The notes: generated by a model not told the origin, from the letters alone. Shown: positions 10,890 through 38,038, counted from the stretch's first letter. The stretch is 64,000 bases of DNA from Christensenellaceae bacterium (GCA_045645345.1 JAZRIP010000026.1:5142-69141); one strand, 5' to 3'. Translations and numbers: made by a program.

Positions 10890-11105
10890 TCCAAAAATAT
10901 AAAAAGCCCTTAACGGCAAAAGCCGTCAAGGGCGTGATTGTACACGCTGTTCCACCCTGATTTATAAATCAAGCAAACGCTTTATCTTTAACGCAGATAT
11001 ACGGTAGTTTTTAACTACGGCTAAGGAGCCGTTTTCAATTATCACTCTATAAAAGGCTTTCACCATTGCCTTTCTCTCTGTAAAAGAATAAATAACCTAC
11101 TCTTT
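10890..11105 (-). promoter_or_regulatory. T-box riboswitch leader of thrS
   Basis: On the minus strand I read an AGAGA/AG box (agagagaaagg), a GNUGNA box (ggtgaaa), an F-box (gcgtta) and the T-box sequence aaatcagggtggaacagcg. These are followed by a terminator, gcccttgacggcttttgccgttaagggcttttt. Confidence 0.85.
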
Positions 11106-11164
11106 CCTATAATCGCCTTATTAATTTAGTTAATTATATCAAAATAAATTTTAAAAGTCAATTA

Positions 11165-19698: not shown

Positions 19699-19766
19699 AA
19701 AAAACACGCTTTTGTCGCAATCCATTATGGAGAGTGACAACGGCGTGTTTTAATTTTTAGTAAGTT
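19699..19766. repeat. 68-bp perfect direct repeat, copy 1 (bidirectional terminator hairpin)
   Basis: aaaaaacacgcttttgtcgcaatccattatggagagtgacaacggcgtgttttaatttttagtaagtt is identical to 20597-20664. It has a 15-bp stem (one mismatch) flanked by an A-run and a T-run. It includes the last 10 nt of the XRE CDS. Confidence 0.95.
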
Positions 19767-20002
19767 CCTTCTAACTCTAAGTCTTTAAACAAATCGTCGT
19801 TAAAAAAATCAAAAAGAGAAATGTTTAAGGCTTGGCAGATATCAAGCAAAGTTCGTGTTCCAGGATTTTTGCTTTTACCATAAAAAATGCTTTTTATAGT
19901 ACCTGCAGGCAAGCCCGAAAGGGTTGCAAGTTTGTTAGGACTTATAGAATTTTGCTCACATAAAGCGTATATTCGTTTTGTGATTGCTTCTTCTAATTTC
20001 AT
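19757..20002 (-). CDS. XRE-family HTH transcriptional regulator
   Basis: 81 aa. HTH_3-like (ISPNKLATLSGLPAGTIKSIFYGKS). Divergent from the SLOG gene. Confidence 0.8.
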   Translation of the reverse strand: MKLEEAITKRIYALCEQNSISPNKLATLSGLPAGTIKSIFYGKSKNPGTRTLLDICQALNISLFDFFNDDLFKDLELEGTY

Positions 20003-20022
20003 ACTTTATAATTTCCCAAAGT

Positions 20023-20093
20023 TATATCTTCTATAATAATATCAAAAATAATTTTAAAATATGGAAGATATATCTTCTATTTTGTGCTATAAT
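20023..20093 (+). promoter_or_regulatory. putative operator/promoter between the XRE and SLOG genes
   Basis: Direct repeat tatatcttctat at 20023-20034 and 20069-20080. Perfect 14-bp palindrome gaagatatatcttc at 20064-20077. Extended -10 TGcTATAAT ending at 20093. Confidence 0.5.
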
Positions 20094-20106
20094 GATTGTT
20101 GAGAGT

Positions 20107-20586
20107 ATGAAAACGATAGCATTTTTTGGACATAGAAGAGTATTAGAATTTAATAAAGTAAAAGAAAAACTGTTAAAAATTTTAAAAGACGTTATAAAAC
20201 GCAAGGGGGTAACCTTTTTAATAGGTTGTCACGGCGATTTTGATAATCTTGCTTTATCGGTATGTTTAGATTATAAAAAAAATATAGACAACGATGCAAA
20301 AATAAACGTAATTTTAACAAGCGTATCTTATTTAAACAAAGATGATAATGGGGTAAGTAGGGCAGATTTATATTTAAATAAAGGGGGAGAAACAATATTT
20401 TATAATATTGAAGAAATTTATTATAAAAAACGTATTGAGTACTCTAATAAGAAAATGGTAGATAATAGTGATTTAATAATATGTTATGTAGATACAAAAA
20501 GTTACAAGAGTGGAGCAAAAAAGGCAGTTAATTATGCAGTCAAACAAAACAAAAAAATTATAAATTTGTTTGGGCAAGAAAAATAA
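20107..20586 (+). CDS. SLOG-superfamily protein (DUF1273 / YpsA-YoqJ-like)
   Basis: Start moved to MKTIAFFGHRR. The pattern FGHR...G..GDFD..A......RN/KKMVDNSDLIICY...SGA...V.YA matches the SLOG/DUF1273 family as I remember it. The track's N-terminal extension overlaps the promoter. Confidence 0.7.
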   Translation: MKTIAFFGHRRVLEFNKVKEKLLKILKDVIKRKGVTFLIGCHGDFDNLALSVCLDYKKNIDNDAKINVILTSVSYLNKDDNGVSRADLYLNKGGETIFYNIEEIYYKKRIEYSNKKMVDNSDLIICYVDTKSYKSGAKKAVNYAVKQNKKIINLFGQEK

Positions 20587-20596: not shown

Positions 20597-20664
20597 AAAA
20601 AACACGCTTTTGTCGCAATCCATTATGGAGAGTGACAACGGCGTGTTTTAATTTTTAGTAAGTT
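20597..20664. repeat. 68-bp perfect direct repeat, copy 2
   Basis: Identical to 19699-19766. It immediately follows the SLOG stop codon. Confidence 0.95.
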
Positions 20665-20874: not shown

Positions 20875-21157
20875 GTGTAGCCTGCTATACGTCGCAAAAG
20901 CGAAATATGGTGGGCTTTTCTTATCCGCATAGATTAAGTTGAAAAGTGATATTTTTAGCCGTGTGGCTAAAAGTTATATGCCGTTGGCGTGATATTTTGG
21001 CAAAGCCAAAGTGATATTAAATAAATCCTTAACCTTGCGTAGCAAGATATCACTGCGTTAGCAATATCACTTGCCGATAGACAAATCTCACAAATCCGTT
21101 TACGGATTTATTTAGTTGTCGCAATTCCCTACGGGAAGAGCGACTTTCTTGTCCACC
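20875..21157. other. hairpin-dense, GC-enriched non-coding block (candidate structured RNA or protein-binding array)
   Basis: At least 7 short perfect hairpins: 20956-20969, 20997-21009, 21034-21046, 21092-21109 and the nested pair at 21118-21144, among others. GTGATATT occurs three times direct (20946, 20989, 21011), followed by three inverted copies (21046, 21063, 21085). A possible closing helix is ggtgggc 20909-20915 with gtccacc 21151-21157. Confidence 0.6.
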
Positions 21158-21171: not shown

Positions 21172-21200
21172 TTGAAAAACTTAAAAAAGTATGATATAAT
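21172..21200 (+). promoter_or_regulatory. strong sigma-A type promoter of the TIR-pair operon
   Basis: TTGAAA (21172-21177), 17 nt spacer, extended -10 TGaTATAAT (ending 21200). SD aaggggg lies before ATG 21227. Confidence 0.65.
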
Positions 21201-21226
21201 GAAACAAATTTAGTAAGGGGGCTTAT

Positions 21227-22354
21227 ATGGAAGTCGTTTCTAATAATAATTTAGATTTAAAAGAATATTTAGGTCATATCGTAATTTTGCACGATAGCCA
21301 ACAAGACGATAAACTCGACCAGTTAAAAGAAGTGCTTGACGTTTCAGGTTATCAATATTTTTGCATGCCGATAGTCGACGAAGACGTTGACGGGGCAGTT
21401 GCTTTTGAAGATACCAACATTTTTAACGGATGCGTTTGTTTAATTCCCGTTTTTTCTAAACGTCTTTTTGAAGAAGGTAACGTATTTTTAAAAAGTCAAT
21501 ACTGGTATTACATAGGTTACGTAAAATCAATTCATAGCGATGCTATATTGCCGTACTGCACCGACGAAAGTCAAAAAGCATCTTTAAACGGCACGCCTTT
21601 ACATAAATTAGATTTTAAAAACAACGTTGACGATTTAATGTATACTATTCAAGAAAAATATTCGTCAAAATTGATTTGTTATAATTACTACGAAAATAAA
21701 ACGGTTAATAAGTTTGCGTCAAAGCGTATTATGTATAGGGACCTTTGTATAAAGTTTAAAATTTATCAAACTGCGTTCGAAAACGCAAAACAATATTATC
21801 AAGACTGCACGTCAAGACGTATAAGCGATAATGCGTTTGACGAATTTATAGCAAGTGAAATCGTTGCAGGTTGCAGAGTGTTGAGTTTTGGTAGCGTTAA
21901 AAACTTAACCGCACCACTTATGCCGTATAAAGACGAAGTGGTTACTAAGGTCGACGATTATCCTAAAACCATAACGGGTAAAAAATCCTACGTTCAACTT
22001 TCTAGCGAAGAACAAGAAGAAACGGGGGTTAGGGCTGAACTTACAATGAACGTTTTGATGCCCGTTCATAAACTTTTAGGGACTACTTTTAAGTGCTTTA
22101 TTACGCTTAAAAACAATAAATGTCCTATATACTTGTTGCTTGCGTTATTAGAAGGCGATTTTATAGGTAAAGCACCTGAGTTTAACGATAATTTAAGCGA
22201 AGAAAATGATTTTTGGATGCAAATATATCCAAAAGAATCGTTTATCGACCAAAAAAACTCTCGTTTATATATTAGCACGGGACTTACTAGCACGAAAAAC
22301 GACGACGAAAGTTTGGGTGTAGGCGGGTACAACGATTATATGTATCCGCAATAA
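21227..22354 (+). CDS. TIR-like (degenerate) domain protein with uncharacterised C-terminal domain; paralog of the downstream gene
   Basis: 375 aa. The N-terminal roughly 130 aa aligns by eye with the TIR of the next gene (HIVILHDS vs GIFISHSN; CVCLIPVFS...SQYWYYIGYVK vs AVVIITESS..SNWVNYEVGFLK). It lacks the SHS and the Glu. Shared C-terminal motifs are PVHKLLGTTFKCFI, RLYIS and NDYMYP. Confidence 0.6.
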   Translation: MEVVSNNNLDLKEYLGHIVILHDSQQDDKLDQLKEVLDVSGYQYFCMPIVDEDVDGAVAFEDTNIFNGCVCLIPVFSKRLFEEGNVFLKSQYWYYIGYVKSIHSDAILPYCTDESQKASLNGTPLHKLDFKNNVDDLMYTIQEKYSSKLICYNYYENKTVNKFASKRIMYRDLCIKFKIYQTAFENAKQYYQDCTSRRISDNAFDEFIASEIVAGCRVLSFGSVKNLTAPLMPYKDEVVTKVDDYPKTITGKKSYVQLSSEEQEETGVRAELTMNVLMPVHKLLGTTFKCFITLKNNKCPIYLLLALLEGDFIGKAPEFNDNLSEENDFWMQIYPKESFIDQKNSRLYISTGLTSTKNDDESLGVGGYNDYMYPQ

Positions 22355-22367
22355 TAAGGGGGAGAAT

Positions 22368-23504
22368 ATGTTACCGATAGAAACAAAAATGCAAGGTGAT
22401 TTTGATTTTTACACAAGGCTTTTAAAAGAAGAAGAGAAAAAGTTTTACGGTATATTTATTTCGCACTCTAATGCAACTGCAAAGGATTTAGAATTATTAA
22501 ATTCGTTGCGTCAGGCGTTAAGTGAAAAAGAAATTTATACTTTATGCGATAAAGAATGTATTAAAGGTGGCGACGATTTTCAGGCGAAAATCGAAGACGC
22601 TTTAGATTGTTACGGTGCAGTCGTTATAATAACCGAAAGTTCAATTCGTTCAAACTGGGTTAATTACGAAGTGGGATTTTTAAAGGGGCGTGGTAAAGAA
22701 GTTTACGTTTGGGACCCATACAATCTCTTTTCTAGTAAAAATAGGGAAGTTGATAAAACTTTAAAAACAGCGTATTCGTTTTTTAAAAACGTTGGCAATA
22801 TTTATAACGATATGCAAGACGTTATAGACGCCGTCTCACAAGCGTCGCCATACTCGGCAATGTTTATTGAAGAAAACGAGTTTATAACTTGTAAAGAGTT
22901 TTATGGTAGGGCAAACGAAAGGCTCGAGTCGGTTATAGCAACTTTATCAAGCCCTATATTTGAAGAATACTATTCGTTGTTTAAAGATTGCAAGTTTGGT
23001 GTTTTAATACCAAATTTTGGTATGTTTTACGAAGAACACGGCGACGGTGAACATTGTTATTCTAAAAGGAACGCTTTAATTACGGATGGAATTTGTCCTA
23101 TAAGTGAAAAGCCTTGTGCGTTAGTTTCAAGAAAAGTAATCGACGAAGAAAACAAAGAGTGCGTAGTTTTAAATAACGTAGCCTACTCGGGGACTTTAAG
23201 AAGAAAGGGTGAAGTCGATAGAACGGGTGAGTTGTATGAAGAAAGCGTAGTGGAATTTACAATTCCTTTACACAAGTATTTAGGCACAGAATTTAAGTTT
23301 ATCATTGACGGGGCAGATAATCAATCGCACCTTGCTATTATGAAAATTTTAGACCAAGCAGGTATGAATCCTACTATTTCGGAAAGTAAAATAGGCACAA
23401 GAATTTATCTTTCTTTACCAGAACGTCGTGGTCAAGGTTTATATAGATTAAACCATCAATTTACAAATAATTTCTTATGTCCGTACGCATCAAGAAAAAA
23501 ATAA
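22368..23504 (+). CDS. TIR-domain protein with uncharacterised C-terminal domain
   Basis: 378 aa, 13 nt after the upstream paralog, with SD aaggggga. TIR hallmarks: FISHS (aa 30-34), GGDDF loop, AVVIITESSIRSNWVNYE with W97 and E101 in the SxWxxxE position of catalytic-Glu TIRs. C-terminal motifs are PLHKYLGTEFKFII, RIYLS and NNFLCPY. Confidence 0.7.
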   Translation: MLPIETKMQGDFDFYTRLLKEEEKKFYGIFISHSNATAKDLELLNSLRQALSEKEIYTLCDKECIKGGDDFQAKIEDALDCYGAVVIITESSIRSNWVNYEVGFLKGRGKEVYVWDPYNLFSSKNREVDKTLKTAYSFFKNVGNIYNDMQDVIDAVSQASPYSAMFIEENEFITCKEFYGRANERLESVIATLSSPIFEEYYSLFKDCKFGVLIPNFGMFYEEHGDGEHCYSKRNALITDGICPISEKPCALVSRKVIDEENKECVVLNNVAYSGTLRRKGEVDRTGELYEESVVEFTIPLHKYLGTEFKFIIDGADNQSHLAIMKILDQAGMNPTISESKIGTRIYLSLPERRGQGLYRLNHQFTNNFLCPYASRKK

Positions 23505-23510
23505 GATAAT

Positions 23511-23542
23511 TAAAAAACACTTGTTTCAAACAAGTGTTTTTT
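23511..23542. terminator. bidirectional intrinsic terminator after the TIR pair
   Basis: aaaaaacacttgtttcaaacaagtgttttttt: a perfect stem flanked by an A-run and a T-run. Confidence 0.8.
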
Positions 23543-23568
23543 TGTACAAATTATATATAATTTATCGA

Positions 23569-24369
23569 TTACTGCACTAAATCGTTAAGTTTTAAGTCCC
23601 TATATTGTTTAGGCGACATGCCGGTATGTTTCTTAAATGCTCTACTAAAATAATATACACTTTCAAAACCTAATAAAAACGCTGTTTCGCTTATAGTACA
23701 AATATCGCTTTTTAGTATTTGTTTCGCCCTGTTAATTCGTATAGCGTTTTTATATTCAATAGGTGTAACGCCCGTTTCTTTTTTAAAAATTCTATAAGTT
23801 TGTGCTTGGCTTAAAAAACACAATTTTGATAAAATATCACAACTAAAATTACTGGTGTAATTTCTTTTAATATATTCAATCGCAGGTGAAATAACGCTTT
23901 GTTTGTGTTCGTCGCTAGACTTACTGAATATGTCGAAAAGTTGGTACAAAAGTGCCGTGCTTTTAAACGTACCACTTGCGTCACGGAATAACTCAACAAG
24001 GTCTATAACCATATCTAAAATATATTTTTCAGCGTTACGATAAACTATTTGTGGCGTAGTTGAAAAAACTATTCGTTCGCCGTTTTTGGCCGTAATTTTA
24101 AAGTCAATGCGATAAAATGCAATTTGTTCGCTTAAAATAGTCAATTTGTGCTTAGAAAGGTGGGGTAAATATATAATATCGCCGTGAGTTAGCGTTTGTT
24201 TATTATTTTCCCACTCGTAAAGGCACTCGCCTTTATCAATTAAAATAAATCCGTTAGGCACTCTCGCTTTCATATCAAGCGTCTTGTAAGACGGTGTTTG
24301 ATAAATTGCCGAAATATCGGTTAGGTAGTATTTTTCTTTAATTAATTCGTTTAACGTACAAGTTTTCAT
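23569..24369 (-). CDS. AraC-family transcriptional regulator (cupin sensor plus HTH)
   Basis: 266 aa. C-terminal double HTH (SQAQTYRIFKKETGVTPIEYKNAIRINRAKQIL...YYFSRAFKKHTGMSPKQYR). Confidence 0.9.
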   Translation of the reverse strand: MKTCTLNELIKEKYYLTDISAIYQTPSYKTLDMKARVPNGFILIDKGECLYEWENNKQTLTHGDIIYLPHLSKHKLTILSEQIAFYRIDFKITAKNGERIVFSTTPQIVYRNAEKYILDMVIDLVELFRDASGTFKSTALLYQLFDIFSKSSDEHKQSVISPAIEYIKRNYTSNFSCDILSKLCFLSQAQTYRIFKKETGVTPIEYKNAIRINRAKQILKSDICTISETAFLLGFESVYYFSRAFKKHTGMSPKQYRDLKLNDLVQ

Positions 24370-24506
24370 AAATTTATTATAATATCCTATTAGTTTAAAG
24401 TCAATTAAAAATGAGAAAATAGTTTAAAAAGTAAAAAATATATTGCATTTACTCTATGAGTAAATTATGGTAAAATTGTTGTAGAAATTTACGGAGGTTT
24501 TTATAT

Positions 24507-24707
24507 ATGGCAAAAAAATACAAAGTAGGTGGTGGCTGTGCTTTATGCCTTATGTGTGTTTATGAGTGTGCCGTTGGTGCAATTAGTATAAATGAAAACG
24601 TATCGGCAGTTATAGACCAAGCAAAATGCGTTGGTTGTGGAAGATGTTATAACAATTGTCAAGCAGAGGCAATTATTGAAGATAAAGATTATAAGGAGAA
24701 TAAATAA
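24507..24707 (+). CDS. 2x[4Fe-4S] ferredoxin
   Basis: 66 aa. Two Cys clusters (CALCLMCVYEC and CVGCGRCYNNC). The stop overlaps the next start (TAATG). Confidence 0.85.
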   Translation: MAKKYKVGGGCALCLMCVYECAVGAISINENVSAVIDQAKCVGCGRCYNNCQAEAIIEDKDYKENK

Positions 24708-26227
24708 TGTTAAAATTTAAATGCGAAAATGGTTTCGTTATAAACGGCGAAGAAAAAATTCCAGTATACGGCGAATACGACGTAGTTGTCGTTGGTGGTG
24801 GTATGGCAGGTGTTGGTGCTGCGTTAGCATCGGCAAAAATGGGTGCAAAAACTATTATCATTGAAAATACGTCGGCTCTCGGTGGTCTTGCAACTATGGG
24901 CTTAGTTAATATTCCGCTTGACTTCGTTTCTGGCGTTGGTAAAGAATTTTTTGACGACCTTGACGCTATTAACGGCTTAAGAAGAAGAAACAGCGACCCA
25001 GAAAAACACAAATTAATTTTTGATAGATTACTTCAAAAATACAATTGTGAAATTTTATTAGTTACTCCACTTGTAGATACGTTAGTTGAAGGTAACGAAG
25101 TAAAAGGTATTATTATACATACTAAGCAAGGCAGAAAGGCTATTTTAGGTAAGCGTTTCGTCGACGCATCTGGTGATAGCGACTTAGTTTACTTTGCTGG
25201 TGGCGAAACGGTAACGGGTAGACCAGGCGACGGTATGAGTATGGGTTGCTCGTTAGACTTTATTTTAGGTGGCGTTGACTTTGATACTTATCAAGCAAGC
25301 GAACTTGGTCAACATGACCAAAAATGGATTAAATTTATCGATAAAGCCTTAAAAGAGGGTAAATTACCATACGAAATTGACAATCACTTAAACTGGATGA
25401 CACACCTTCCTGATAGACCTGAACACTGCAAAAAAGACGAAGTAAGTATATGTTTTGCTCACTCTAGAAATTGTTTTCCAACCGACAACAAAGACTTAAC
25501 TAGAATGTATATCGAAGGCCGTGAACAAGCACAAATTTTAGCAAAATTCATCAAAGAAAACGTTCCAGGATTTGAAGAAAGTTATTTAAGTTATACGGGT
25601 GCGTTACTCGGCGTAAGAGAAAGTCGTAGAATTATAGGTGAATACGAATTTACGGGTATGGATATTGCGTATGCTAAAAAATTTGACGACGTTATTGCTA
25701 TAAGTCAACACGGTTTTGACTTGCACGGCTTTGAAAAAGCAGGTAATATGAAATGGTTTAAGGGTAAATTACCAAACGGCGAAGACGCATATATTGCAAA
25801 TCGTGCAGGTTGGGGCTCACAATTGCCACCAGACGACGGCTTACCAAGAGTTAATATGAAAGACTTAATAAGTAGCGACGCTTATTATTACGATATTCCA
25901 TATCGTTCACTCGTTCCTATTAGACTTGAAAACGTTTTAGCGGCAGGTAGAAACATTTCTTCTGATATTCCAGGACAAAGCGGTACTAGACTTGTTATGT
26001 GTTGTATGAGTTTAGGCGAAGCGGCAGGCACTGCGGTTGCTATGTCGTTAAAAGCAAATTGTACTCCAAGAAATATTGACGTTGGTGCATTGCAAAGACA
26101 ACTCGTTAAAAACGGCTACAATATAGGTCAAAGATTTAGAAAAATCCCAGCCCTTGCAGAAGTTGATACTAACGGCGAAGCAAGTGCGTACGCTATTGAT
26201 ATTAAGAGTGTAAACGATAACGGGTAA
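24707..26227 (+). CDS. FAD-dependent oxidoreductase (FAD_oxidored family)
   Basis: 506 aa. N-terminal dinucleotide fold VVVVGGGMAGVGAALASAKMGAKT. Translationally coupled to the ferredoxin gene. Confidence 0.8.
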   Translation: MLKFKCENGFVINGEEKIPVYGEYDVVVVGGGMAGVGAALASAKMGAKTIIIENTSALGGLATMGLVNIPLDFVSGVGKEFFDDLDAINGLRRRNSDPEKHKLIFDRLLQKYNCEILLVTPLVDTLVEGNEVKGIIIHTKQGRKAILGKRFVDASGDSDLVYFAGGETVTGRPGDGMSMGCSLDFILGGVDFDTYQASELGQHDQKWIKFIDKALKEGKLPYEIDNHLNWMTHLPDRPEHCKKDEVSICFAHSRNCFPTDNKDLTRMYIEGREQAQILAKFIKENVPGFEESYLSYTGALLGVRESRRIIGEYEFTGMDIAYAKKFDDVIAISQHGFDLHGFEKAGNMKWFKGKLPNGEDAYIANRAGWGSQLPPDDGLPRVNMKDLISSDAYYYDIPYRSLVPIRLENVLAAGRNISSDIPGQSGTRLVMCCMSLGEAAGTAVAMSLKANCTPRNIDVGALQRQLVKNGYNIGQRFRKIPALAEVDTNGEASAYAIDIKSVNDNG

Positions 26228-26357
26228 TAAAAAAACGATACGGAGTTGAAATTTATTTTTTAACTTCGTATTTTGTTATTGACAACGCTTAAACCCTTTT
26301 GTATAATAAAAAGTGAAAACAATAATATTGTTTTAAAAAATAATAAAAGGTACTGGT

Positions 26358-27602
26358 ATGGAAAAATTACAATTAACGAATTTAGTTTTTGAAGATTACG
26401 AACAAAGGTTTGCAAAAGCAAGAGTAGACCAAAAATTTAGAGAATTATGGAAAGAAAAAGATAGAGAAGAAGTTTTAAAACACGTTAAAGATATTCTTCG
26501 CTACGATGAAAGTTTAATTCCAGAAATTAAAGTTATAGACGAGCAAACTAAAATGGTAGGCGATATAAAAGTTACACATTTTACTTTTGAAAGTTGGAAA
26601 AACGTTTACGGCAAATACACATTGTTTTCGCCAAATTTAGAAGGGAAAAGGCCACTCGTTGTTATCTGTTCAGGTCACGAGCCTTTAGGCTGTTTAGCGG
26701 AGGCAAACCAAAGGCTTGCTTACCGTTTAGTAAAAATGGGTTGTCACGTCGTAATAAATCAAAATATGGGGCAGGGTGGCAGAGAACCGTTAGGTCATAA
26801 ACGCGTTGTTGGACCGTTTTATTGTGGGCTTACTTTCCAAGGTTTAATAGTTGCCGAAACCATTGCCGTTATTAGACACGCTTGCAAGTTTGATTTTATC
26901 GATACAGAAAGGGTAGGTACTACGGGTAATTCGGGCGGTGGTACGTTAACTATGTTTTTATCAGCGTTAGCACCCGAGGTTCAAGCAGTAGCAACAACTG
27001 GATATCCGTCGGAATTCGACCATCTTTTTCAAAAAGAACGTTTTCATTGTGCTTGTAATTTACTTAGTGGGGTTATGGGAAAAATCGATATGTGGGAAGT
27101 TTTAGCACTTCACGCACCAAATCCACTTATGATGGAACAAGGTATGAACGACCACCTTATTCCTTTCGATTGTTTTGCAAGGGCTGCAAGAAAAGTTCAA
27201 ACAACTTATAAAATGATGGGTAAAGGCGAAAATTTCTCTTATAAAACTACTCCTACGGGGCATCCATGGCTTGACAGTGATATGGTTATTATAGGGCAAT
27301 TCTTTGCTAAATATTTCGGTTTAGAAGAAGTAGAAGTTGCTAGTGATGAAGGAATGATGGTTCCTATAAGCGACGGCGAAATTTTATTCCCTAAAAACGC
27401 TATTAACGTAAATCAATTAGCAGAACAATTAACCGGTATAAAATTGCCTGCTAGCGTTAAAGAATTAAAAGACATTTATAAACCTAAATACAAAGGTAAA
27501 CTTATTAACAAAGACGACGTTATAACCGATATAGGTAGGGGAGACCTAATGACCGTTTGGGCTCAATACGAAATTACGTTAGACGGAGAAGTTGTTCGTT
27601 AA
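26358..27602 (+). CDS. alpha/beta hydrolase (esterase, acetyl-xylan-esterase/DLH-like)
   Basis: 414 aa. Nucleophile elbow GNSGGG. TTGACA-17-TATAAT promoter at 26279-26307. Confidence 0.7.
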   Translation: MEKLQLTNLVFEDYEQRFAKARVDQKFRELWKEKDREEVLKHVKDILRYDESLIPEIKVIDEQTKMVGDIKVTHFTFESWKNVYGKYTLFSPNLEGKRPLVVICSGHEPLGCLAEANQRLAYRLVKMGCHVVINQNMGQGGREPLGHKRVVGPFYCGLTFQGLIVAETIAVIRHACKFDFIDTERVGTTGNSGGGTLTMFLSALAPEVQAVATTGYPSEFDHLFQKERFHCACNLLSGVMGKIDMWEVLALHAPNPLMMEQGMNDHLIPFDCFARAARKVQTTYKMMGKGENFSYKTTPTGHPWLDSDMVIIGQFFAKYFGLEEVEVASDEGMMVPISDGEILFPKNAINVNQLAEQLTGIKLPASVKELKDIYKPKYKGKLINKDDVITDIGRGDLMTVWAQYEITLDGEVVR

Positions 27603-29215
27603 TGAGTATAATTACGATAAATAGTTATAAAGGTGAAAGACTTTTTGCCGATAGGCTTAACAGTTTAATATCTAACGCAAAAGACGGCGACGTTCTCGTA
27701 TTTGAAAAGGGAGAATATTATTTAGATAAGCAAATAAACGTTATAAATAAGAAAAATATAACTTTTGATTGTCAAAGTGGCGTTGTTTTTTCGGTAAAGT
27801 TTGACGTAAGCGTAGGTGGTGAAGTTCCTACTACGAATATAAACGCATTTTATTTTGAAAGTTGCGAGAATATAACTTTTAAAGGCGGGGTTGTTCAAGC
27901 AAGTCAACCAACTAGCGTTAGGGGTAAACTAATTAAGGTTAATAAAGAAGAAGATTACGTTGAAGTTGAAGTGTATCCAAAAAGTCCGTTATCTAGCGAC
28001 GTTAAGTTTATAGGTGGTATGACTTTTGATAAAAATGGTATGCCAACTCATGGAGCAATGGCTACTCATAAAAAGAAAGACCCAAGATTTGATACGTATA
28101 AAGACAAGCGAATTATCGTTGCAAACGAACTTGTAACGACTAACGCCCCAAGTCCAACCTTAAGAACCGAAAGGCTTAATGAAAACCTTTTTAGGTTTAG
28201 GGGAATTATGAATATGCATATTCACGAAGAAGGACTTGATTGTGCTTTATATCACGCATATTACGGAATTTCAGCCTTTATTTTTAGAAATACCAGCAAC
28301 GTAACGATTGATGGTGTAAGAATAAATCGTTTCGGTGGTATGGGCTACCTTGTTTTAACAAGATGCTATAATTTTGCTTTTAAAAACTTAATTTTTGATA
28401 ATCCCGATAAAGAACACTCTTGGATGTCAACTCAAAGCGATGCTATTCATACGTTAGGCTTAGGCGGTGAATTAATTTTAGAAAACGTTTACTTCGATTC
28501 GACTTGCGACGATTGTCTTAACGTTCACTCACAAATACTTACTTGCAAAGAAATTATTGACGGCAAACATAAGGTCGTATATGATAAAAAGCAAGGTATA
28601 GTTTCAAAAACGTGGGCAAAAGCGGGAGACGTGCTTTACGTATACGATAGTCAAAGTTTGGTTATAAAAGGTCAAGTTGAAGTGGAAAATTTCGTTGACG
28701 GATATCTTGTTTTAAAAGATGATGGTTATAAAGTTTCGGTTGGTGATATGCTTACTAATTGTGAATATATGCCTAACGTAACTATTGACAATTGTGTAAT
28801 TAATAAGTGTGTTGGACAGTTTAAAATAAAAAGTTGCAAAAAGGCAGTAGTTAAAAATTGCAAGTTTTATAATGAAGGCCGAGCAGTAAACGTTAGCGAA
28901 TTTTTACCAACTTTAGAAGGCGGTCCTGCACAAAACGTAGTAATTGAAAATAACGAGTTTTACTATGCAAAAAGGCAAGCCCCTATATTTAGTGGGTACA
29001 TAAAAGACTTTTCGGAGTATTATGATTACGATAGGATTGACCAGCCTATAATACAAAACGTCGTGGTTAAAAACAATAAGTTTATAAAAACGACGTGCCA
29101 AGAAGTTATGCGTTTCTTAGCAACGGACGGATTAGTTGTTGAAAATAACGAGTTTATTGATTGTTTAAGTCAAGAAATTAAAATCGAGTGTTGTAAAAAC
29201 GTAACTATTAAATAA
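27602..29215 (+). CDS. right-handed parallel beta-helix repeat protein (putative polysaccharide-degrading enzyme)
   Basis: Start ATG 27602 overlaps the previous stop (TAATG). Periodic N-x-T/V-I/V-x-N/G repeats (NITFKGG, NVTIDGVRINRF, NVTIDNCVINKC, NVVIENNEF, NVVVKNNKF) are typical of the pectin-lyase fold. Confidence 0.6.
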   Translation: MSIITINSYKGERLFADRLNSLISNAKDGDVLVFEKGEYYLDKQINVINKKNITFDCQSGVVFSVKFDVSVGGEVPTTNINAFYFESCENITFKGGVVQASQPTSVRGKLIKVNKEEDYVEVEVYPKSPLSSDVKFIGGMTFDKNGMPTHGAMATHKKKDPRFDTYKDKRIIVANELVTTNAPSPTLRTERLNENLFRFRGIMNMHIHEEGLDCALYHAYYGISAFIFRNTSNVTIDGVRINRFGGMGYLVLTRCYNFAFKNLIFDNPDKEHSWMSTQSDAIHTLGLGGELILENVYFDSTCDDCLNVHSQILTCKEIIDGKHKVVYDKKQGIVSKTWAKAGDVLYVYDSQSLVIKGQVEVENFVDGYLVLKDDGYKVSVGDMLTNCEYMPNVTIDNCVINKCVGQFKIKSCKKAVVKNCKFYNEGRAVNVSEFLPTLEGGPAQNVVIENNEFYYAKRQAPIFSGYIKDFSEYYDYDRIDQPIIQNVVVKNNKFIKTTCQEVMRFLATDGLVVENNEFIDCLSQEIKIECCKNVTIK

Positions 29216-29287
29216 TTTATACCGAAAAGCCGATTGCTTCTCGGTATTTTATTTGACAATTTTAATTTATTATTTTATTATTTATTT

Positions 29288-30061
29288 ATGGTAAAATTTA
29301 TTACGAATAAGCGAATAAATAAATATTTAAGTAAAGAAAAAAAAGTTAAAAGTCTACTTTTTACAAGTTCAACTAACGATGATTTAAAAAAATCTATATT
29401 GAACGCAGGCGTATACGACGCAATAGTTAGTGAATTACAATTTAAAGGCAGAGGTAGGTTGAAAAGAAAATTTCACTCGCCTATGTTTAGTGGAATTTAT
29501 ATTTCAATCAGGCTTAAAAATTCGTTTGACTACGCTAGCGTTGGAAGAATTACAACGTGCGTAGCCGTTTTAGTAAGTAAAGCAATTGAAAGCCTTTACG
29601 ACGTAAAAGTTGGCGTTAAGTGGGTAAACGACCTTTTCATAAACGGCAAAAAAGTTGCCGGCATTTTAGCCGAATCAGTTATAAAAGACGGAAAAATTCA
29701 AGGTATAATAGTAGGCATAGGATTAAACGTTTACGATAAAAAATTTCCAAAAGAACTTGAAAATATAACAACTAATTTACAAAAAGAAACGGGCAAAAAG
29801 GTTGATAGAAATCAAATTATTGCAAAAATATTAGAAAGTTTAGACGGCATTTACGAACAAATTCAAAATGACGATTTTATTTGTGAATATAAAAAAAAGA
29901 TGTTCCTTTTAAATAAAAAAGTAGTCGTTTCAAGTGGTGATAATCGTTTCGAGGCAATTTGTGTTGACGTTACTTATGATGGCAAATTAGTTGTTATAAA
30001 AGGCAATGAAAAAATAGAAATTTCAGTAGGTGACGTTAGCGTAAAAAGTGCTAATGATTGA
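29288..30061 (+). CDS. birA: biotin--[acetyl-CoA-carboxylase] ligase, group I (no HTH)
   Basis: GRGRLKRKFHSP (GRGRxGRxW-type) and KWVNDLFINGKKVAGILAE motifs. Start at MVKFIT with no SD. The promoter is placed for a leaderless mRNA. Confidence 0.8.
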   Translation: MVKFITNKRINKYLSKEKKVKSLLFTSSTNDDLKKSILNAGVYDAIVSELQFKGRGRLKRKFHSPMFSGIYISIRLKNSFDYASVGRITTCVAVLVSKAIESLYDVKVGVKWVNDLFINGKKVAGILAESVIKDGKIQGIIVGIGLNVYDKKFPKELENITTNLQKETGKKVDRNQIIAKILESLDGIYEQIQNDDFICEYKKKMFLLNKKVVVSSGDNRFEAICVDVTYDGKLVVIKGNEKIEISVGDVSVKSAND

Positions 30062-30159
30062 ATTATAGGTTGATTTTTGTAATAAAATGTAATTAGGTAT
30101 TGACATTTTGTTTTGTTGTGTTGTATAATTAATTTATAAAAGGTTGGAGGTTTTTTCTT

Positions 30160-30474
30160 ATGTCAAAAAATTTAGAAAAAGTTTGGGATTTTATAGGTGA
30201 AGTTTTAGCACTTTTGCTTTTAATAGTTTACGCAGTTTTAATATTAGATGCTAATTTTCATTTTTTACCAAGTGGGCCTATAATGGAAGTGTTGCAAATT
30301 TTAAGAACGTATGGTTCTTTTGCTCTTGTGGGTATAGTTGGCTTTGAAGCAATTACTAAACGTGGTTTTCTATTTAAACTTATCTTTTTAGCACTTATTG
30401 CTTTAGTTGTAATATTTATGTTTTTCCCAGATACTTACGATGCATTAATAAAAGCCTTTGTAAGTGTTCAATAA
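30160..30474 (+). CDS. small hypothetical membrane protein
   Basis: 104 aa, 3 TM helices. GGAGG SD. TTGACA/TATAAT promoter upstream. Confidence 0.6.
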   Translation: MSKNLEKVWDFIGEVLALLLLIVYAVLILDANFHFLPSGPIMEVLQILRTYGSFALVGIVGFEAITKRGFLFKLIFLALIALVVIFMFFPDTYDALIKAFVSVQ

Positions 30475-30643
30475 TTAACAAAAAATTTAACGACCTTAAA
30501 CTTAAGGTCGTTTTTTTGTGTAATGAATATTGAAAATCGCTTGAAAAGTAAGATACTTTGTGCTATTATATATATGATGGGTAATTTTGGGTTATCCTTC
30601 AAAAGAATATATATAGAACTATGTTCTAATTAAGGAGAATATT

Positions 30644-31231
30644 ATGGAAAATATTAAGGTTGTTCCCGTTGTTGTAATAAACGATATTAACGACACTAAC
30701 AAAACACTTTCGGCTTTATGTGAAGGAGGGCTTCCAGTTGCTGAAATTACGTTTAGAACTGCTTGTGCCGAAGAAGCAATTCGTCTTGGTACGAAAAACT
30801 TCCCAGATATGTATATAGGTGCTGGTACTGTTATTAATAAAGAACAGGCAGAAAAAGCGTATAACGCAGGTGCTAAATTTATCGTATCGCCAGGTTTAAG
30901 CGAAGAAGTTGCTCTTTTCTGTAAAGAAAAAGGCATTACTTATTACCCAGGTTGTGCTACGCCAACTGAAATTATGCAAGCAATTGCACTTGGCATTAAA
31001 ATCGTTAAATTTTTTCCAGCAAACGTTTATGGTGGCCTTAAAGCAATTAAGGCTTTGGCTGGTCCGTTCCCACAAATTAAATTCTTACCAACGGGTGGCG
31101 TTGATTTAACTAACCTTAAGGAATTTTTAGAATTTGACAAAATTTACGCTATCGGTGGTAGTTTTATGATGAAAGGCGATATCGTAGAAAACTGCAAAAA
31201 AATTAACGAAATTATTGATAGTATGCAATAA
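30644..31231 (+). CDS. eda: 2-dehydro-3-deoxyphosphogluconate / 4-hydroxy-2-oxoglutarate aldolase
   Basis: 195 aa. Has VVPVVVI, AEITFRT, GAGTV and FIVSPG motifs, plus a Schiff-base Lys region (VKFFPA). Confidence 0.9.
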   Translation: MENIKVVPVVVINDINDTNKTLSALCEGGLPVAEITFRTACAEEAIRLGTKNFPDMYIGAGTVINKEQAEKAYNAGAKFIVSPGLSEEVALFCKEKGITYYPGCATPTEIMQAIALGIKIVKFFPANVYGGLKAIKALAGPFPQIKFLPTGGVDLTNLKEFLEFDKIYAIGGSFMMKGDIVENCKKINEIIDSMQ

Positions 31232-31287
31232 TAAAAACGCACTTATAGTGTGATAAATAAAATATTTTATATAAAGGAAGATTTATT

Positions 31288-32307
31288 ATGAAAGTTATTA
31301 CTTTTGGTGAAATCATGTTAAGACTTGCTCCAGAAGGATATTTAAGATTTGTTCAATCTGAAAAATATCTTGCTACTTTTGGTGGAGCAGAAGCAAACGT
31401 TGCAGTATCACTTGCAAACTATGGCGTAGACGTAAGTTTCGTTACGAAACTCCCTAAAAACGAAATAGGTCAATCGGCAATCAATTCTGTAAGAAAGTTT
31501 GGTGTTGATACGTCTAAAATCGTTCGTGGGGGCGAAAGAGTAGGTATTTATTACTGCGAAAAAGGTGCATCTCAAAGACCAAGTAAAGTTGTATATGATA
31601 GAGCATATTCTGCTATCAGTATGGCAAAGAAAGAAGATTTTGACTGGGCGTCTATTTTCGAAGGCGTTGATTGGTTCCACTTTACGGGAATTACTCCAGC
31701 TCTTTCTGACGAAGTTGCTGAAATTTGTTTAGAAGCAGTTAAAGAAGCAAGAGCAAGAGGCATTAAAGTTTCTTGCGACCTTAACTTTAGAAAGAAATTA
31801 TGGTCTAAAGAAAAAGCAGGCGAAGTAATGGGTAAACTTTGCAACTATATCGATTATTGTATTGCTAACGAAGAAGACGCTAAAGACGTATTCGGTATTG
31901 AAGCAGACGATACTGATATTTACAGCGGTAAACTTAATAGAGAAGGCTATATTTCAGTTGCTAAAAAATTAACTGATAGATTTGGTTTTAAAGGTGTAGC
32001 AATTACGTTAAGAGAAAGTTTATCAGCAAACGACAATAACTGGTCGGCAATGCTTTACACTAACGGCGAAGCAGTATTTAGCAAAAAATACGCAATGCAC
32101 ATCGTAGACAGAGTTGGTGGTGGTGATAGTTTCGGTGGTGGTCTTATCTACTCACTTTTAAATGGTTACGAACCACAAAAGGCTATTGAATTTGCAGTTG
32201 CCGCATCTTGCTTAAAGCACTCTGTTGAAGGCGACTATAATATGGTTAGCGTTGACGAAGTTGAAAAACTTGCTGGTGGCGACGCTTCTGGTAGAGTTCA
32301 AAGATAA
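31288..32307 (+). CDS. kdgK: 2-dehydro-3-deoxygluconokinase (PfkB family)
   Basis: 339 aa. PfkB signatures (GGAEANVAV; DRVGGGDSFGGG). Adjacent to eda. Confidence 0.85.
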   Translation: MKVITFGEIMLRLAPEGYLRFVQSEKYLATFGGAEANVAVSLANYGVDVSFVTKLPKNEIGQSAINSVRKFGVDTSKIVRGGERVGIYYCEKGASQRPSKVVYDRAYSAISMAKKEDFDWASIFEGVDWFHFTGITPALSDEVAEICLEAVKEARARGIKVSCDLNFRKKLWSKEKAGEVMGKLCNYIDYCIANEEDAKDVFGIEADDTDIYSGKLNREGYISVAKKLTDRFGFKGVAITLRESLSANDNNWSAMLYTNGEAVFSKKYAMHIVDRVGGGDSFGGGLIYSLLNGYEPQKAIEFAVAASCLKHSVEGDYNMVSVDEVEKLAGGDASGRVQR

Positions 32308-32359
32308 TTTGACTAATAATTTATAGATTTTTGTTAATACTACTTGTATAGGAGTTATT

Positions 32360-32473
32360 ATGCAAGAAAAAAGTATTACGGAAATTATTTGGGAACTTTT
32401 TGAAAATTCAGGCAAAATAAATTATTATTTATTAGCGAAACGAATTGACGAAGAGGACGAAGAAAAAAGATAA
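32360..32473 (+). CDS. yqzL: YqzL-like small protein (37 aa)
   Basis: Not in the ORF track. GGAG SD. MQEKSITEIIWELFENSGKINYYLLAKRIDEEDEEKR carries the W..F..(T/S)G.I..YLL.K pattern. It lies immediately upstream of recO, as in Bacillus. Confidence 0.65.
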   Translation: MQEKSITEIIWELFENSGKINYYLLAKRIDEEDEEKR

Positions 32474-32474
32474 A

Positions 32475-33203
32475 ATGGAATTAAAAGTAAACGCACTTGT
32501 AACAAGGGCGGTAGAATATAAAGAAAACGATAAAATATTGACTTTATATTCTTATGAAAAAGGCAAAATAACTGCCGGAATAAAAGGGGTAAAAAAGTCG
32601 GGGGCGAAATTAAAGTTCGCTTCCGAACCTTTTTGTTTTGCCGAATTTATTTTGGCTAATAAAGGGGATAGAAATACTGTCATAAATGCTACGTTTATCG
32701 ACAGTTTTTATAATTTACGAACAAACTTATTAAAATATTATACAAGTTGCGTCGTTGCCGAAACTATTAACGTAATAGTTGAACAAAACGCTAGCGACGA
32801 AAATTTGTTTAATTTGATTATTAATACGATAAAATATATTTGTTACGGACAAAACGAAAAAGCCGTGCTTTGCAAATATCTTTATCTATTTTCTAAATAT
32901 AACGGATATGAAATTCAAGATACGGCTTGCTGTGGCTGTCTTGAAGATATTGAAAAAAGAGTGTTTTTTAACGTAACCGACGCAACCTTTAGTTGCGAAA
33001 GTTGCAAAACTCATAATTTTATGGAAATAACAAATGAAACGTATCAAACCTTAAAAATGATTAATAAACTAAGTTTTGAAGAAATTGCGTCTAAAAAAGA
33101 AATTATAGAGTGTGATAAATTTTTAAAATTTATGCTTTACTATTTAAAAGCAAAAACCGACGTAAAATTAATTAGTGGCGATATGGTGTTTAGTGATGTG
33201 TGA
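32475..33203 (+). CDS. recO: DNA repair protein RecO
   Basis: Start at MELKVNALV. OB-fold N-terminus (EYKENDKILTLYS...GKI). Zn motif CCGC...CxxC. Confidence 0.85.
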   Translation: MELKVNALVTRAVEYKENDKILTLYSYEKGKITAGIKGVKKSGAKLKFASEPFCFAEFILANKGDRNTVINATFIDSFYNLRTNLLKYYTSCVVAETINVIVEQNASDENLFNLIINTIKYICYGQNEKAVLCKYLYLFSKYNGYEIQDTACCGCLEDIEKRVFFNVTDATFSCESCKTHNFMEITNETYQTLKMINKLSFEEIASKKEIIECDKFLKFMLYYLKAKTDVKLISGDMVFSDV

Positions 33204-33204
33204 T

Positions 33205-34188
33205 ATGATAAATAAAGAAAAAGAAACGTTTGGTACTATCAACAAAACGCCGATATATACGTATACGATTTCTAGTTCAAAACTAAAAATTAAAGTTATT
33301 AATTACGGAGCAACAATAGTTGACGCAGTTTATTTTAAAGATAAAAATACGTCTATTAACGTCGTTTTAAAATATAATACTTTTCAAGAGTATATAAATC
33401 AAAAAGCCTACTATGGTGCGATTATCGGTAGATATGCAAATAGAATAGAAGGGGCAAAATTTACTTTAAACGGCAAAGAGTATCGTTTAAAATGTAATGA
33501 AAACGGAAATCAGTTGCATGGTGGTGAAAGTGGTTTTGATAAAAAGATATGGCAAGTTGAAAAGTATTCTTTAAACTCGATAACCCTTTCATATTTAAGT
33601 AAAGATGGTGAAGAAGGGTTTCCGTCAAGCGTTAAAGTTTTTGTAACTTATACGATAGACGACGATTGCTTTAAGATTGATTATTTTGCGACGAGTGACG
33701 GAGATACTTATATAAATTTAACAAATCATGCTTACTTTAACTTAAACGGAATAGAAAATAAAATTGATGGTTGTTTATTGCAAATTAGTGCCGACAAAAT
33801 CACAAAAACAAACGAAAATCTAATACCTAACGGTGAATTTATTTTTGTAAAAGATACGTTGTACGATTTTAATAATCCACGCCCGTTTATAAAAGATTTA
33901 AGTTTAGATGCAACCTTATTTAGTAGGGGTTGTTACGATGATAATTTTGTTTTAAAAGGTAATGGTCTTAGAAAGGTTGCATACCTTTATAGTCCAACGA
34001 CTAGACTTAAAATGGAAGTTTATACCGACCAAAAAGGTATGCAAGTATACACGGGCAACTCTTATGGAATAGCCTTAGAAACGCAAAACTTTCCCAACGC
34101 TATGAACGTTAAGGAGTTTCCGTCGCCTTTACTTAAAAAGCAAGAAAAATATAAAACGACTACCATTTATAAATTTTTTATACAATAA
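33205..34188 (+). CDS. galM: aldose 1-epimerase (mutarotase)
   Basis: NRIEGAKFTLNGKEYRLKCNENGNQLHGG signature and HAYFNL. The start could be 33196 or 33205. Confidence 0.85.
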   Translation: MINKEKETFGTINKTPIYTYTISSSKLKIKVINYGATIVDAVYFKDKNTSINVVLKYNTFQEYINQKAYYGAIIGRYANRIEGAKFTLNGKEYRLKCNENGNQLHGGESGFDKKIWQVEKYSLNSITLSYLSKDGEEGFPSSVKVFVTYTIDDDCFKIDYFATSDGDTYINLTNHAYFNLNGIENKIDGCLLQISADKITKTNENLIPNGEFIFVKDTLYDFNNPRPFIKDLSLDATLFSRGCYDDNFVLKGNGLRKVAYLYSPTTRLKMEVYTDQKGMQVYTGNSYGIALETQNFPNAMNVKEFPSPLLKKQEKYKTTTIYKFFIQ

Positions 34189-34236
34189 AAAACTTGGCTT
34201 ACGCCAAGTTTTTCTTTTTTACAAGATTTTCTTTTA

Positions 34237-34650: not shown

Positions 34651-34743
34651 ATATAAACCCCCTTTATATAAAAAAATTATACATCTTAAATATTATATTG
34701 TCAATAAAAGAAAATAATTAATTTATATAAGGGTAAAATGATA

Positions 34744-34956
34744 TTAGTTTGTGCAATCGTCAAGCCCTACTAAATAGTCAATCGAAACGTTAAAAAATTT
34801 GGCTAATAAAATTAACGAATACATATTAGGCTCTCTTAGCCCATTTTCCCAAAGGCTAATAATGCCTTTACTAACACCTATTTGTTTTGCAAGTTCCACC
34901 TGCCCAATACCTGCTTCAATACGCAAGGCTTTTAAATTTTCTTTAAAGGTTATCAT
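34744..34956 (-). CDS. XRE-family HTH transcriptional regulator
   Basis: 70 aa. HTH_3 (GQVELAKQIGVSKGIISLWENG). Confidence 0.85.
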   Translation of the reverse strand: MITFKENLKALRIEAGIGQVELAKQIGVSKGIISLWENGLREPNMYSLILLAKFFNVSIDYLVGLDDCTN

Positions 34957-34975
34957 ATTATAATAATCTCACAAT

Positions 34976-35019: not shown

Positions 35020-35053
35020 AACTCAAGGCTTACCAAAGAAAAAAGGAGAAATA

Positions 35054-38029: not shown

Positions 38030-38038
38030 GAAAAAAAT

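Follow-up and report, generated by a model that had tools for sequence, protein, structure and literature searches.

Two adjacent genes, referred to here as A and B, in a stretch of 64,000 nucleotides (nt) from a Christensenellaceae bacterium (GCA_045645345.1 JAZRIP010000026.1:5142-69141; the whole stretch is hereafter termed the window) raise the question of whether a TIR protein and its neighbouring paralog constitute a signalling module of a new kind and, if so, whether this module serves immunity. TIR enzymes that make signalling nucleotides from nicotinamide adenine dinucleotide (NAD+) are central to bacterial, plant, and animal immunity, and their bacterial catalogue is still growing. 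A preliminary description of the window had presented A and B as full-length tandem paralogs with a shared C-terminal region of no known family, and as a candidate immune module situated in a repeat-delimited, accessory islet. The analysis reported here identifies A and B as a previously undescribed two-gene TIR/pseudo-TIR family, which carries an orphan C-terminal domain and is restricted to gut Clostridia; the pair matches no named defence architecture, as the preliminary description had stated. With moderate confidence, the two genes are regarded as a TIR module that is self-contained and inherited together: B would be the NAD-cleaving enzyme (NADase) or signal generator and A its regulator or sensor, likely triggered by phage, the immune trigger being the weakest step of this reading. 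The pair probably makes or consumes NAD-derived signals and perhaps acts in phage defence; its immune role is putative.

Both open reading frames (ORFs), of 375 and 378 codons for amino acids (aa), are present on the same strand and are separated by 13 nt, and the motifs previously reported for them all recur: the B protein contains FISHS, GGDDF, and VVIITESSIRSNWVNYE with a glutamate at residue 101, and the C-terminal blocks shared by the two proteins read PVHKLLGTTFKCFI / PLHKYLGTEFKFII, RLYIS / RIYLS, and NDYMYP / NNFLCP. The earlier assignment of B to the TIR proteins is upheld by three lines of comparison. B scores 32.8 bits against Pfam TIR_2 (PF13676; gathering cutoff 28) over residues 29-104, and a profile of B and its homologs, 50 in number, matches the solved TIR NADases AbTir and BtTir over residues 26-148 (E 2.6e-13 to 1e-12). 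The AlphaFold2 (AF2) model of B has a predicted local distance difference test score (pLDDT) of 88.3 and, in Foldseek comparisons with the TIR domains of RPS4, RUN1, and AbTir, reaches a probability of 1.0 with target-normalised TM-scores of 0.5-0.64, RPS4 being the top match. Homologs of B retrieved by a word-seeded search fall into 123 clusters, all of them full-length. Residues F30, S32, H33, G68, W97, and E101 are invariant in 50 of these homologs, and the catalytic glutamate (E101, in the motif WVNYE) is retained in 50 of 50 and, in a comparison of paired loci, in 30 of 30. Judged from its sequence, B is a bona fide TIR protein and a probable NAD-cleaving enzyme. The proposal that the N-terminal domains of A and B are instead nucleoside 2-deoxyribosyltransferase-like or nucleotide-hydrolase enzymes of nucleotide metabolism can draw on fold comparisons, in which a search of viral-protein models (BFVD) gives many nucleoside 2-deoxyribosyltransferase models for the N-terminal domain and one PDB match of A is a putative deoxyribosyltransferase. 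Such fold-level cross-matches are expected, because both folds, that of TIR and that of deoxyribosyltransferases, are members of one flavodoxin-like superfamily, and the TIR_2 score above the cutoff, the AbTir and BtTir matches at E ~1e-13, and the invariant W-x-x-Y-E motif render this proposal extremely improbable.

The remainder of B, a beta-rich domain, could not be assigned to any family, in agreement with the preliminary description. No Pfam match is obtained even at E <= 10, and NCBIfam, PADLOC, PHROGs, and PDB sequences provide no family for this domain, the matches of B to these collections being confined to the TIR core; scans with the C-terminal domains of A and B in isolation added no family match; in full-length-model fold searches of the PDB and BFVD, the N-terminal domain dominates and the C-terminal domain is not assignable from them. 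The domain contains the motifs NFGMFY, P-x-H-K-x-x-G-T-E-F-K, R-I-Y-L-S, and NNFLCP, as well as five invariant cysteines (C230, C243, C250, C265, and C371), which are a candidate Zn site. A profile restricted to the C-terminal domain, searched against 1.84 billion representative proteins, matched 54. Roughly full-length matches (~300-420 aa) carry the domain from approximately residue 140 to the end, and those N-termini that were inspected start with a FISHS-type TIR; the remaining matches are short fragments, and no other N-terminal domain was seen ahead of the domain.

Protein A is the more divergent member of the pair and has no match in Pfam (including TIR_2), PADLOC, NCBIfam, PHROGs, or PDB-sequence profiles; its homologs form 17 clusters by the word-seeded search. 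BLASTP aligns A with B only over a 47-aa stretch in the P-x-H-K-x-L-G-T-x-F-K region (E 0.001). Comparison of the whole profiles is collinear across 274 columns (probability 89.8%, E 1.8e-6), and the C-terminal half of A is significantly similar both to that of B (probability 94.4%, E 9e-8) and to that of a distant B-like subfamily (probability 96.3%, E 1.7e-9). The claim of full-length paralogy thus depends chiefly on the C-terminal halves; the N-terminal halves compared on their own by profile-profile alignment are not significantly similar, and their likeness comes through the predicted fold and weak profile matches. The AF2 model of A (pLDDT 70) displays a flavodoxin-like N-terminal domain with weak Foldseek matches to BtTir and BtpA (E 6e-3 to 1.6e-2, target-normalised TM-scores 0.52-0.59), a TIR profile derived from distant B-like proteins gives weak, collinear matches (14-21 bits) in eight A proteins at approximately residues 20-140, and the A-type protein of one locus, L007, carries a weak TIR_2 match in precomputed Pfam annotation. 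At the position aligned with the catalytic glutamate of B, the A proteins have Q, V, F, Y, H, T, L, or N, and glutamate or aspartate in 0 of 30 homologs. Furthermore, a very distant A-like protein in locus L052 scores on both the A profile (1e-13) and the B profile (5e-12) and retains F-Y-E-M-G, i.e., the Y-E-x-G motif, which is consistent with an origin of A from a B-like ancestor. From these findings, A is read as a pseudo-TIR paralog. Sequence comparison and modelling together support the view that A is a degenerate relative of B with a TIR-like N-terminal domain and without the catalytic glutamate, and the designation of A as an inactive TIR attached to the same C-terminal domain as that of B has proved apt.

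The same fold searches raise the possibility that A and B are TIR-APAZ-like proteins related to SPARTA, with an APAZ-type C-terminal domain that either has a nucleic-acid-guided partner elsewhere or itself binds nucleic acid. The top Foldseek matches of the A model are indeed SPARTA TIR-APAZ chains (E 1.8e-5, probability 1.0, 240-480 columns), SPARTA chains are also matched by the B model, and the TIR-only matches of A are weaker (E 6e-3). These alignments, however, have root-mean-square deviations of 20-28 Å and TM-scores of ~0.25, so that only one domain superposes, and comparable scores are obtained with Rag GTPase-roadblock proteins, pointing to a generic resemblance of proteins that join a Rossmann-like to an alpha/beta domain; the low confidence of the A model also counts against them. 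In addition, the PADLOC model Aga_TIR-PNTD1-PNTD2 matches the TIR part of B alone and A not at all, PDB sequence profiles match TIR-APAZ chains over residues 28-86 only, and no Argonaute-sized conserved partner is found in the window or among recurrent neighbours. A TIR-APAZ identity is therefore considered very unlikely.

A and B are inherited as a unit. A scan of 185,579 species-representative genomes returned 36 loci, from metagenome-assembled genomes (MAGs) of Christensenellaceae, Oscillospiraceae, Acutalibacteraceae, Faecousia, and 'Eubacteriales', and all A and B homolog clusters derive from Clostridia MAGs or metagenomes. In every locus where upstream DNA is present, B is directly preceded by a same-strand A homolog, usually at a distance of 11-24 nt, which answers the earlier suggestion that co-occurrence be examined; the order A-then-B is also found in three metagenome loci whose B-like proteins are only ~30% identical. 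Across 30 loci, pairwise identities of A and B are correlated with r = 0.95, indicating co-divergence, and A diverges faster than B (mean identity 36% vs. 49%), as is typical of a regulatory or sensor subunit. In the window, the expression signals of A and B are, on the sequence evidence, consistent with a single operon. The promoter and terminator previously proposed were both located. The former is a promoter-like site ahead of A that stands as a consensus match only, the total count of promoter-like sites in the region being not above shuffle expectation; the latter is a perfect hairpin after B that is likely a bidirectional intrinsic terminator common to A/B and to the convergent AraC gene. 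Both genes have strong, G-rich ribosome-binding sites. Tight coupling, strict co-inheritance, the faster evolution of A, the differing insertion sites between lineages, and the order of an upstream neutraliser and a downstream toxin, as in type II toxin-antitoxin (TA) operons, would also suit a TA-like addiction module, in which B is an NADase toxin, A a pseudo-enzyme antitoxin acting through a heterodimer, and persistence is due to addiction. Nevertheless, A is as large as B and retains the whole domain architecture, unlike typical small antitoxins, neither protein has a DNA-binding domain for autoregulation, and conserved RyR partners (described below) imply a diffusible ligand over simple neutralisation. 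TA modules are usually enriched on plasmids and phages, and no such copies of the pair are found. An addiction module is accordingly judged unlikely.

Information on the product of B comes from the related loci. The preliminary statement that the pair has no partner is true in the window, where no match is obtained with a hidden Markov model (HMM) built from the C-terminal modules of the partners, and does not extend to the family: a RyR or RyR-like protein adjoins the pair in 14 related loci, and roughly one in three related genomes has such a neighbour. The stop codon of one gene often overlaps the start codon of the next. In eight genome loci, A is directly preceded by the gene for a protein of 712-753 aa, whose stop codon overlaps the start of A or is 2-4 nt away from it, and the L055/L056 locus pair, reached via homologs of this protein, has the same arrangement. 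This small family (eight clusters) comprises N-terminal hydrophobic helices, two GxGxxG-like Rossmann segments, and a conserved C-terminal RyR-like module with an invariant E-H-x-R-W-N-A-Y, a downstream H, and D/Y-D-Y (H-x-x-W...H...D). A weakly related 595-aa protein lies 11 nt downstream of B in three loci, with weak matches to TrkA_N (E 6e-4) and RyR (E 4e-4, 21 bits; the gathering cutoff of Pfam RyR, PF02026, is 27.4 bits). The two families are linked by the custom HMM and by the invariant H-x-x-W...H...D, the 595-aa proteins reaching 21 bits and the 712-753-aa proteins having no Pfam match; with the same HMM, a protein outside its training set was picked up in L047, where 657 aa are encoded just after a B fragment. 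RyR domains that exceed the Pfam cutoff occur at two further loci. In L052 (1-1065, 1065-1352), the distant A-like/B-like pair is immediately preceded by a stand-alone 95-aa RyR protein (PF02026, 124.9 bits, E 1.6e-36) and by another RyR-like protein, and in L054 (9063-11330 (-), 4155-6461 (-)), beside a very distant A/B pair, a convergent 754-aa protein combines an HD-like N-terminus, RyR (32.1 bits), and a SLOG-like C-terminus, with a 767-aa AAA ATPase nearby.

RyR domains bind 2'/3'cADPR, i.e., isomers of cyclic ADP-ribose (cADPR); the phage protein RyDEP binds or cleaves 2'/3'cADPR using His75, Trp78, His100, and Asp117, and most tested homologs have nanomolar affinity for 2'/3'cADPR signals (Lopez Rivera et al., 2026; PMC13232231, preprint). 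His75 and Trp78 of RyDEP have the same H-x-x-W spacing as the invariant residues of the 712-753-aa family. The partners in the related loci resemble RyDEP and the RyR R12-domain proteins in possessing a Pfam RyR or RyR-like domain with H-x-x-W...H...D; they differ in being host-encoded, in standing beside a TIR pair, and in being mostly fused to transmembrane helices and Rossmann-like domains, and none is present in the window. A more specific and more tentative reading, which we regard as possible rather than probable, is that A/B generates the signal of a bacterial pathway, the TIR producing a cADPR isomer and a RyR-domain membrane protein reading it, with the dead TIR paralog as a sensing or gating subunit and the window as the minimal two-gene form.

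The mechanism proposed for the module is as follows. The AbTir-like TIR of B is predicted to cleave NAD+, resulting in NAD+ depletion, a cyclic ADP-ribose isomer, or both. A would be an ancient duplicate of B that lost the catalytic residue and kept the family-specific C-terminal domain, and the two proteins may assemble via this shared domain or via their TIR faces. In such a complex, A would be the regulatory or sensing subunit that keeps B silent. On a trigger, for which phage infection is the likeliest candidate, the TIR domains would oligomerise and become active. Because B resembles AbTir and BtTir and because of the ligand specificity of RyR domains, the product is presumed to be ADP-ribose (ADPR) or a cADPR isomer, and a RyR-type protein, where one is encoded beside the pair, may read or degrade this ADPR-based product as an effector or an off-switch. 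As the window has no RyR-type gene, the pair there would work either by itself, as an NAD+-depleting NADase, or together with a receptor whose gene is located in another part of the genome.

Several observations weigh against a phage-triggered module of this kind. The A:B complex, the NADase activity, and the trigger are predictions, the model of A (pLDDT 70) is of low confidence, ~60% of the pairs, that of the window included, have no RyR neighbour, and the 712-753-aa RyR-like membrane protein is also found without the pair (L057, L058). The neighbours of the pair are mostly housekeeping genes that differ between lineages, for example those for tRNA synthetases, TadA, RlmH, methylglyoxal synthase, peptidyl-prolyl isomerase, NadA, and EF-Ts, and the 64-kb window is core chromosome (ClpB, rpsB, tsf, frr, uppS, cdsA, dxr, spo0A, and gap). 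When 128 immediate neighbours from ~30 non-redundant loci were compared with Pfam and with PADLOC models (E <= 1e-8), one UG26 reverse transcriptase and a few isolated matches were found, with no defence-island signal, so the enrichment beside defence genes suggested earlier is not apparent. Relatives of the pair were not found in IMG/VR viral contigs, INPHARED phages, or PLSDB plasmids. The locus is syntenic with that of L013, a related Christensenellaceae MAG with 79% identity in A and 81% in B, where the pair is directly followed by genes that match window positions 29249-42015. Furthermore, a gene for a GH77 4-alpha-glucanotransferase precedes A and is translationally coupled to the pair in one clade of 5-6 species (L007/L040, L035, L041, L042, and L044); in L007 and L042 this gene runs into the start of A, and in L035 and L044 it ends a few to 32 nt before A, which suggests that this starch/glycogen enzyme is co-transcribed with the TIR pair, a coupling unusual for an immune system.

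These observations lead to the main alternative, a non-immune, NAD-derived second-messenger module, in which B makes an ADPR-type signal on a physiological cue sensed by A or by the C-terminal domains and thereby regulates membrane transport, by way of the Rossmann/RyR membrane protein, or carbohydrate metabolism, as a housekeeping regulator of gut Clostridia. The housekeeping neighbourhoods, the core-chromosome position, the synteny with the related MAG, the GH77 genes beside A in five loci, the AraC regulators near the pair in seven loci, the absence of any link to mobile elements or phages, and the solitary occurrence of the RyR-like membrane protein all agree with it. On the other hand, the flanking genes are not conserved between lineages, so that the pair is not tied to any one pathway, its occurrence is sparse and scattered (36 loci in the 185,579 species representatives scanned), and the surroundings in L031, with its TIR-MORN protein, and in L054, with its AAA ATPase and HD-like/RyR/SLOG-like protein, look like conflict-system neighbourhoods. 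To our knowledge, all bacterial TIRs with the catalytic glutamate characterised so far act in conflict systems or virulence. The non-immune alternative is therefore held as a real but minor possibility. The preliminary claim of an immune module is accordingly supported in part: the TIR with its catalytic glutamate and the conserved pairing are borne out, whereas the immune role receives no guilt-by-association support, given the housekeeping neighbours, the lack of phage or plasmid copies, and the core-chromosome location. Homologs in housekeeping neighbourhoods had been named beforehand as a finding that would speak against immunity; such neighbourhoods are partly what was found, yet they are not conserved between lineages. 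The two-gene module, with phage as its putative trigger, is the preferred reading.

Two neighbours of the pair in other genomes are recorded here in their own right. One A/B pair is adjoined by the UG26-type defence-associated reverse transcriptase mentioned above (PADLOC E 7.8e-162), the sole strong defence-model match of the 128 neighbours, and in L031 a TIR-MORN-repeat protein (1327-2460; TIR_2 E 1.8e-20, MORN E 6.9e-39) is encoded directly downstream of a B homolog.

In the window, the pair is flanked by a formate/nitrite (FNT) transporter gene, a helix-turn-helix (HTH) gene, a SLOG-like ORF, and the AraC gene (Table 1). The view that these surroundings mark an accessory insertion is weak, and the repeats do not delimit an islet around the pair. 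The two copies of a perfect direct repeat of 68 nt (19699-19766 and 20597-20664), which is itself a terminator-like hairpin, enclose a cassette of 830 bp with the upstream HTH gene and SLOG-like ORF, not A/B. The cassette resembles an insertion in the course of which the terminator of the formate/nitrite transporter gene was duplicated. Downstream, L013 has the pair at the same place relative to the following genes, so that the extra segment is window 23505-29248 and not the TIR pair. This segment, which is absent from L013, includes the AraC regulator together with ferredoxin, FAD-oxidoreductase, and sugar genes. The upstream flanks of the pair in the window and in L013 are unrelated; the pair thus stands at a synteny break, yet it is not a recently inserted islet.

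The SLOG-like ORF matches PHROG 289 (E 1.8e-9) and, weakly, DprA-like proteins, and has no Pfam, NCBIfam, or PDB match; its sole resemblance to the partners described above is a weak GHR...G.FD match (E 0.013) to the C-terminus of the HD-like/RyR/SLOG-like protein of L054. It was considered as an effector of the type III Thoeris kind and rejected as a conserved component, because no homolog was found beside the pair in other loci. Sub-threshold matches to the Gut-1 RNA motif (Rfam RF01706; gathering score 50) occur at 20944-21022 (+), 21042-21118 (-), and 46602-46672 (+), with 34.8, 45.3, and 35 bits, respectively; the first two are inverted in the 640-nt spacer upstream of A, and the third lies just after a tRNA gene. 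These hairpins were rejected as a conserved leader and placed outside the module because they are missing upstream of the pair in four related loci, and they probably represent a dispersed element of the source genome. A T-box leader (10925-11122 (-), 95 bits) and a lysine riboswitch (48435-48597 (-), 86 bits) are ordinary cis-regulators unrelated to the pair.

Table 1. Positions (nt) of the A/B pair, its expression signals and upstream cassette in the window, and of the partner genes in related loci.
Feature	Sequence	Position	Strand	Remarks
Gene A	window	21227..22354	+	375 aa; predicted degenerate TIR-like N-terminal domain, ~residues 12-150; C-terminal domain, ~160-375, paralogous to that of B
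Gene B	window	22368..23504	+	378 aa; predicted TIR enzyme with family-specific C-terminal domain
TIR domain of B, residues 26-148	window	22443..22811	+	FISHS, GGDDF, catalytic motif W97-x-x-Y-E101
C-terminal domain of B, residues 158-378	window	22839..23501	+	beta-rich, ~220 aa; conservation across homologs
Promoter-like site, TTGAAA-17 nt-TG-TATAAT	window	21172..21200	+	11/12 consensus positions, extended -10 TG
Ribosome-binding site of A, AAGGGGG	window	21215..21221	+	5-6 nt 5' of the ATG at 21227; sequence reading
Ribosome-binding site of B, AAGGGGGAG	window	22356..22364	+	within the 13-nt intergenic gap; sequence reading
Perfect 15-bp hairpin with A-run and T-run flanks	window	23512..23542	.	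dG -13.8 kcal/mol, z = -3.43
SLOG/YpsA-like ORF	window	19984..20586	+	probable start ATG at 20107; 640 nt upstream of A; context, membership uncertain
Cro/C1-type HTH gene	window	19757-20002	-	in repeat-flanked cassette, divergent from SLOG/YpsA-like ORF
712-753-aa family	L016	6692-8851		no Pfam annotation
712-753-aa family	L021	6579-8801		no Pfam annotation
712-753-aa family	L022	2725-4878		no Pfam annotation
712-753-aa family	L027	878-3043		no Pfam annotation
712-753-aa family	L029	6579-8840		no Pfam annotation
712-753-aa family	L030	102-2363		no Pfam annotation
712-753-aa family	L034	6146-8284		no Pfam annotation
712-753-aa family	L039	6564-8789		no Pfam annotation
712-753-aa family	L055	6001-8178		no Pfam annotation
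GH77 gene	L007	5441-6910		
GH77 gene	L035	4717-6153		
GH77 gene	L041	7486-9942		ORF call fuses GH77 with A
GH77 gene	L042	7452-8861		
GH77 gene	L044	7434-8822		

The pair represents a new architecture, i.e., a TIR with an intact active site and an obligate dead-TIR paralog, both with a family-specific domain, in poorly studied gut Clostridia. If A gates or senses for B, the two would form an enzyme/pseudo-enzyme heterocomplex comparable to the paired plant TIR receptors. A non-immune module, on the other hand, would make the pair one of the few bacterial examples of TIR signalling in a housekeeping role. Of greatest interest is the connection with host RyR-domain membrane proteins, which is found in the related loci and not in the window. 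The recurrent host-encoded RyR neighbours make a host-side role of bacterial RyR domains directly testable and bear on the old question of cADPR and the ryanodine receptor; a TIR-made cADPR isomer read by a RyR membrane protein would, if true, be a prokaryotic counterpart, and possibly an antecedent, of the cADPR control of ryanodine-receptor channels in animals.

Among known systems, the Thoeris types I-XI pair a TIR signal generator with diverse effectors, and type III Thoeris combines several TIRs with a SLOG effector (Yirmiya et al., 2025, bioRxiv 10.64898/2025.12.03.692087). B resembles the Thoeris TIRs in its catalytic glutamate, and the pair resembles Thoeris in the multi-TIR operon and, in related loci, in the neighbouring ligand-binding domain, which may belong to a membrane effector. 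The pair differs in the unique 220-aa C-terminal domain of B and in the dead paralog as obligate partner. The window operon contains no Thoeris effector with a signal-binding domain, PADLOC ThsB models match the TIR core of B alone (E 2.8e-9 and weaker) and not at the family level, the NCBIfam model for type III Thoeris ThcB4 gives B 16.7 against a cutoff of 220, the enrichment of defence genes expected of Thoeris is not seen among the 128 immediate neighbours, and RyR was not found among the effector terms in the accessible Thoeris tables (bioRxiv 10.64898/2025.12.03.692087). The analogy with type III Thoeris is tempting, given the SLOG-like ORF found 640 nt ahead of A, yet this ORF is not conserved with the pair and belongs to its own repeat-flanked cassette.

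AbTir and BtTir (PDB 7UWG, 7UXU, 8G83, and 7UXR) are the best sequence matches of the TIR of B and have the same catalytic glutamate motif; they are encoded by single genes and join the TIR to a coiled-coil N-terminal region, whereas B has a Cys-bearing C-terminal domain and an obligate pseudo-TIR partner. Enzymes of the AbTir/BtTir type reportedly make 2'cADPR or 3'cADPR. SPARTA, which comprises a short prokaryotic Argonaute (pAgo) and TIR-APAZ, shares with the pair the order of a TIR and a 200-300-aa alpha/beta domain, the fold matches, and two co-encoded proteins acting as a heterodimer, as may be the case for A and B. By contrast, the partner in A/B is a paralog and not a MID-PIWI protein, there is no sequence similarity past the TIR, no short Argonaute (MID-PIWI) gene flanks the pair in the window, and the recurrent partners across loci are the RyR-like protein and GH77 only. 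The paired plant TIR receptors RPS4/RRS1 (PDB 4C6T) likewise consist of adjacent genes for one signalling-competent TIR and one sensor or regulator TIR in a heterocomplex, as is proposed for A and B. This is an analogy only, since the plant proteins are nucleotide-binding leucine-rich repeat receptors (NLRs) that contain NB-ARC and LRR domains, and homology beyond the TIR is not implied. In its functioning, the module appears closest to TIR systems of the Thoeris type or to a TIR NADase that acts on its own.

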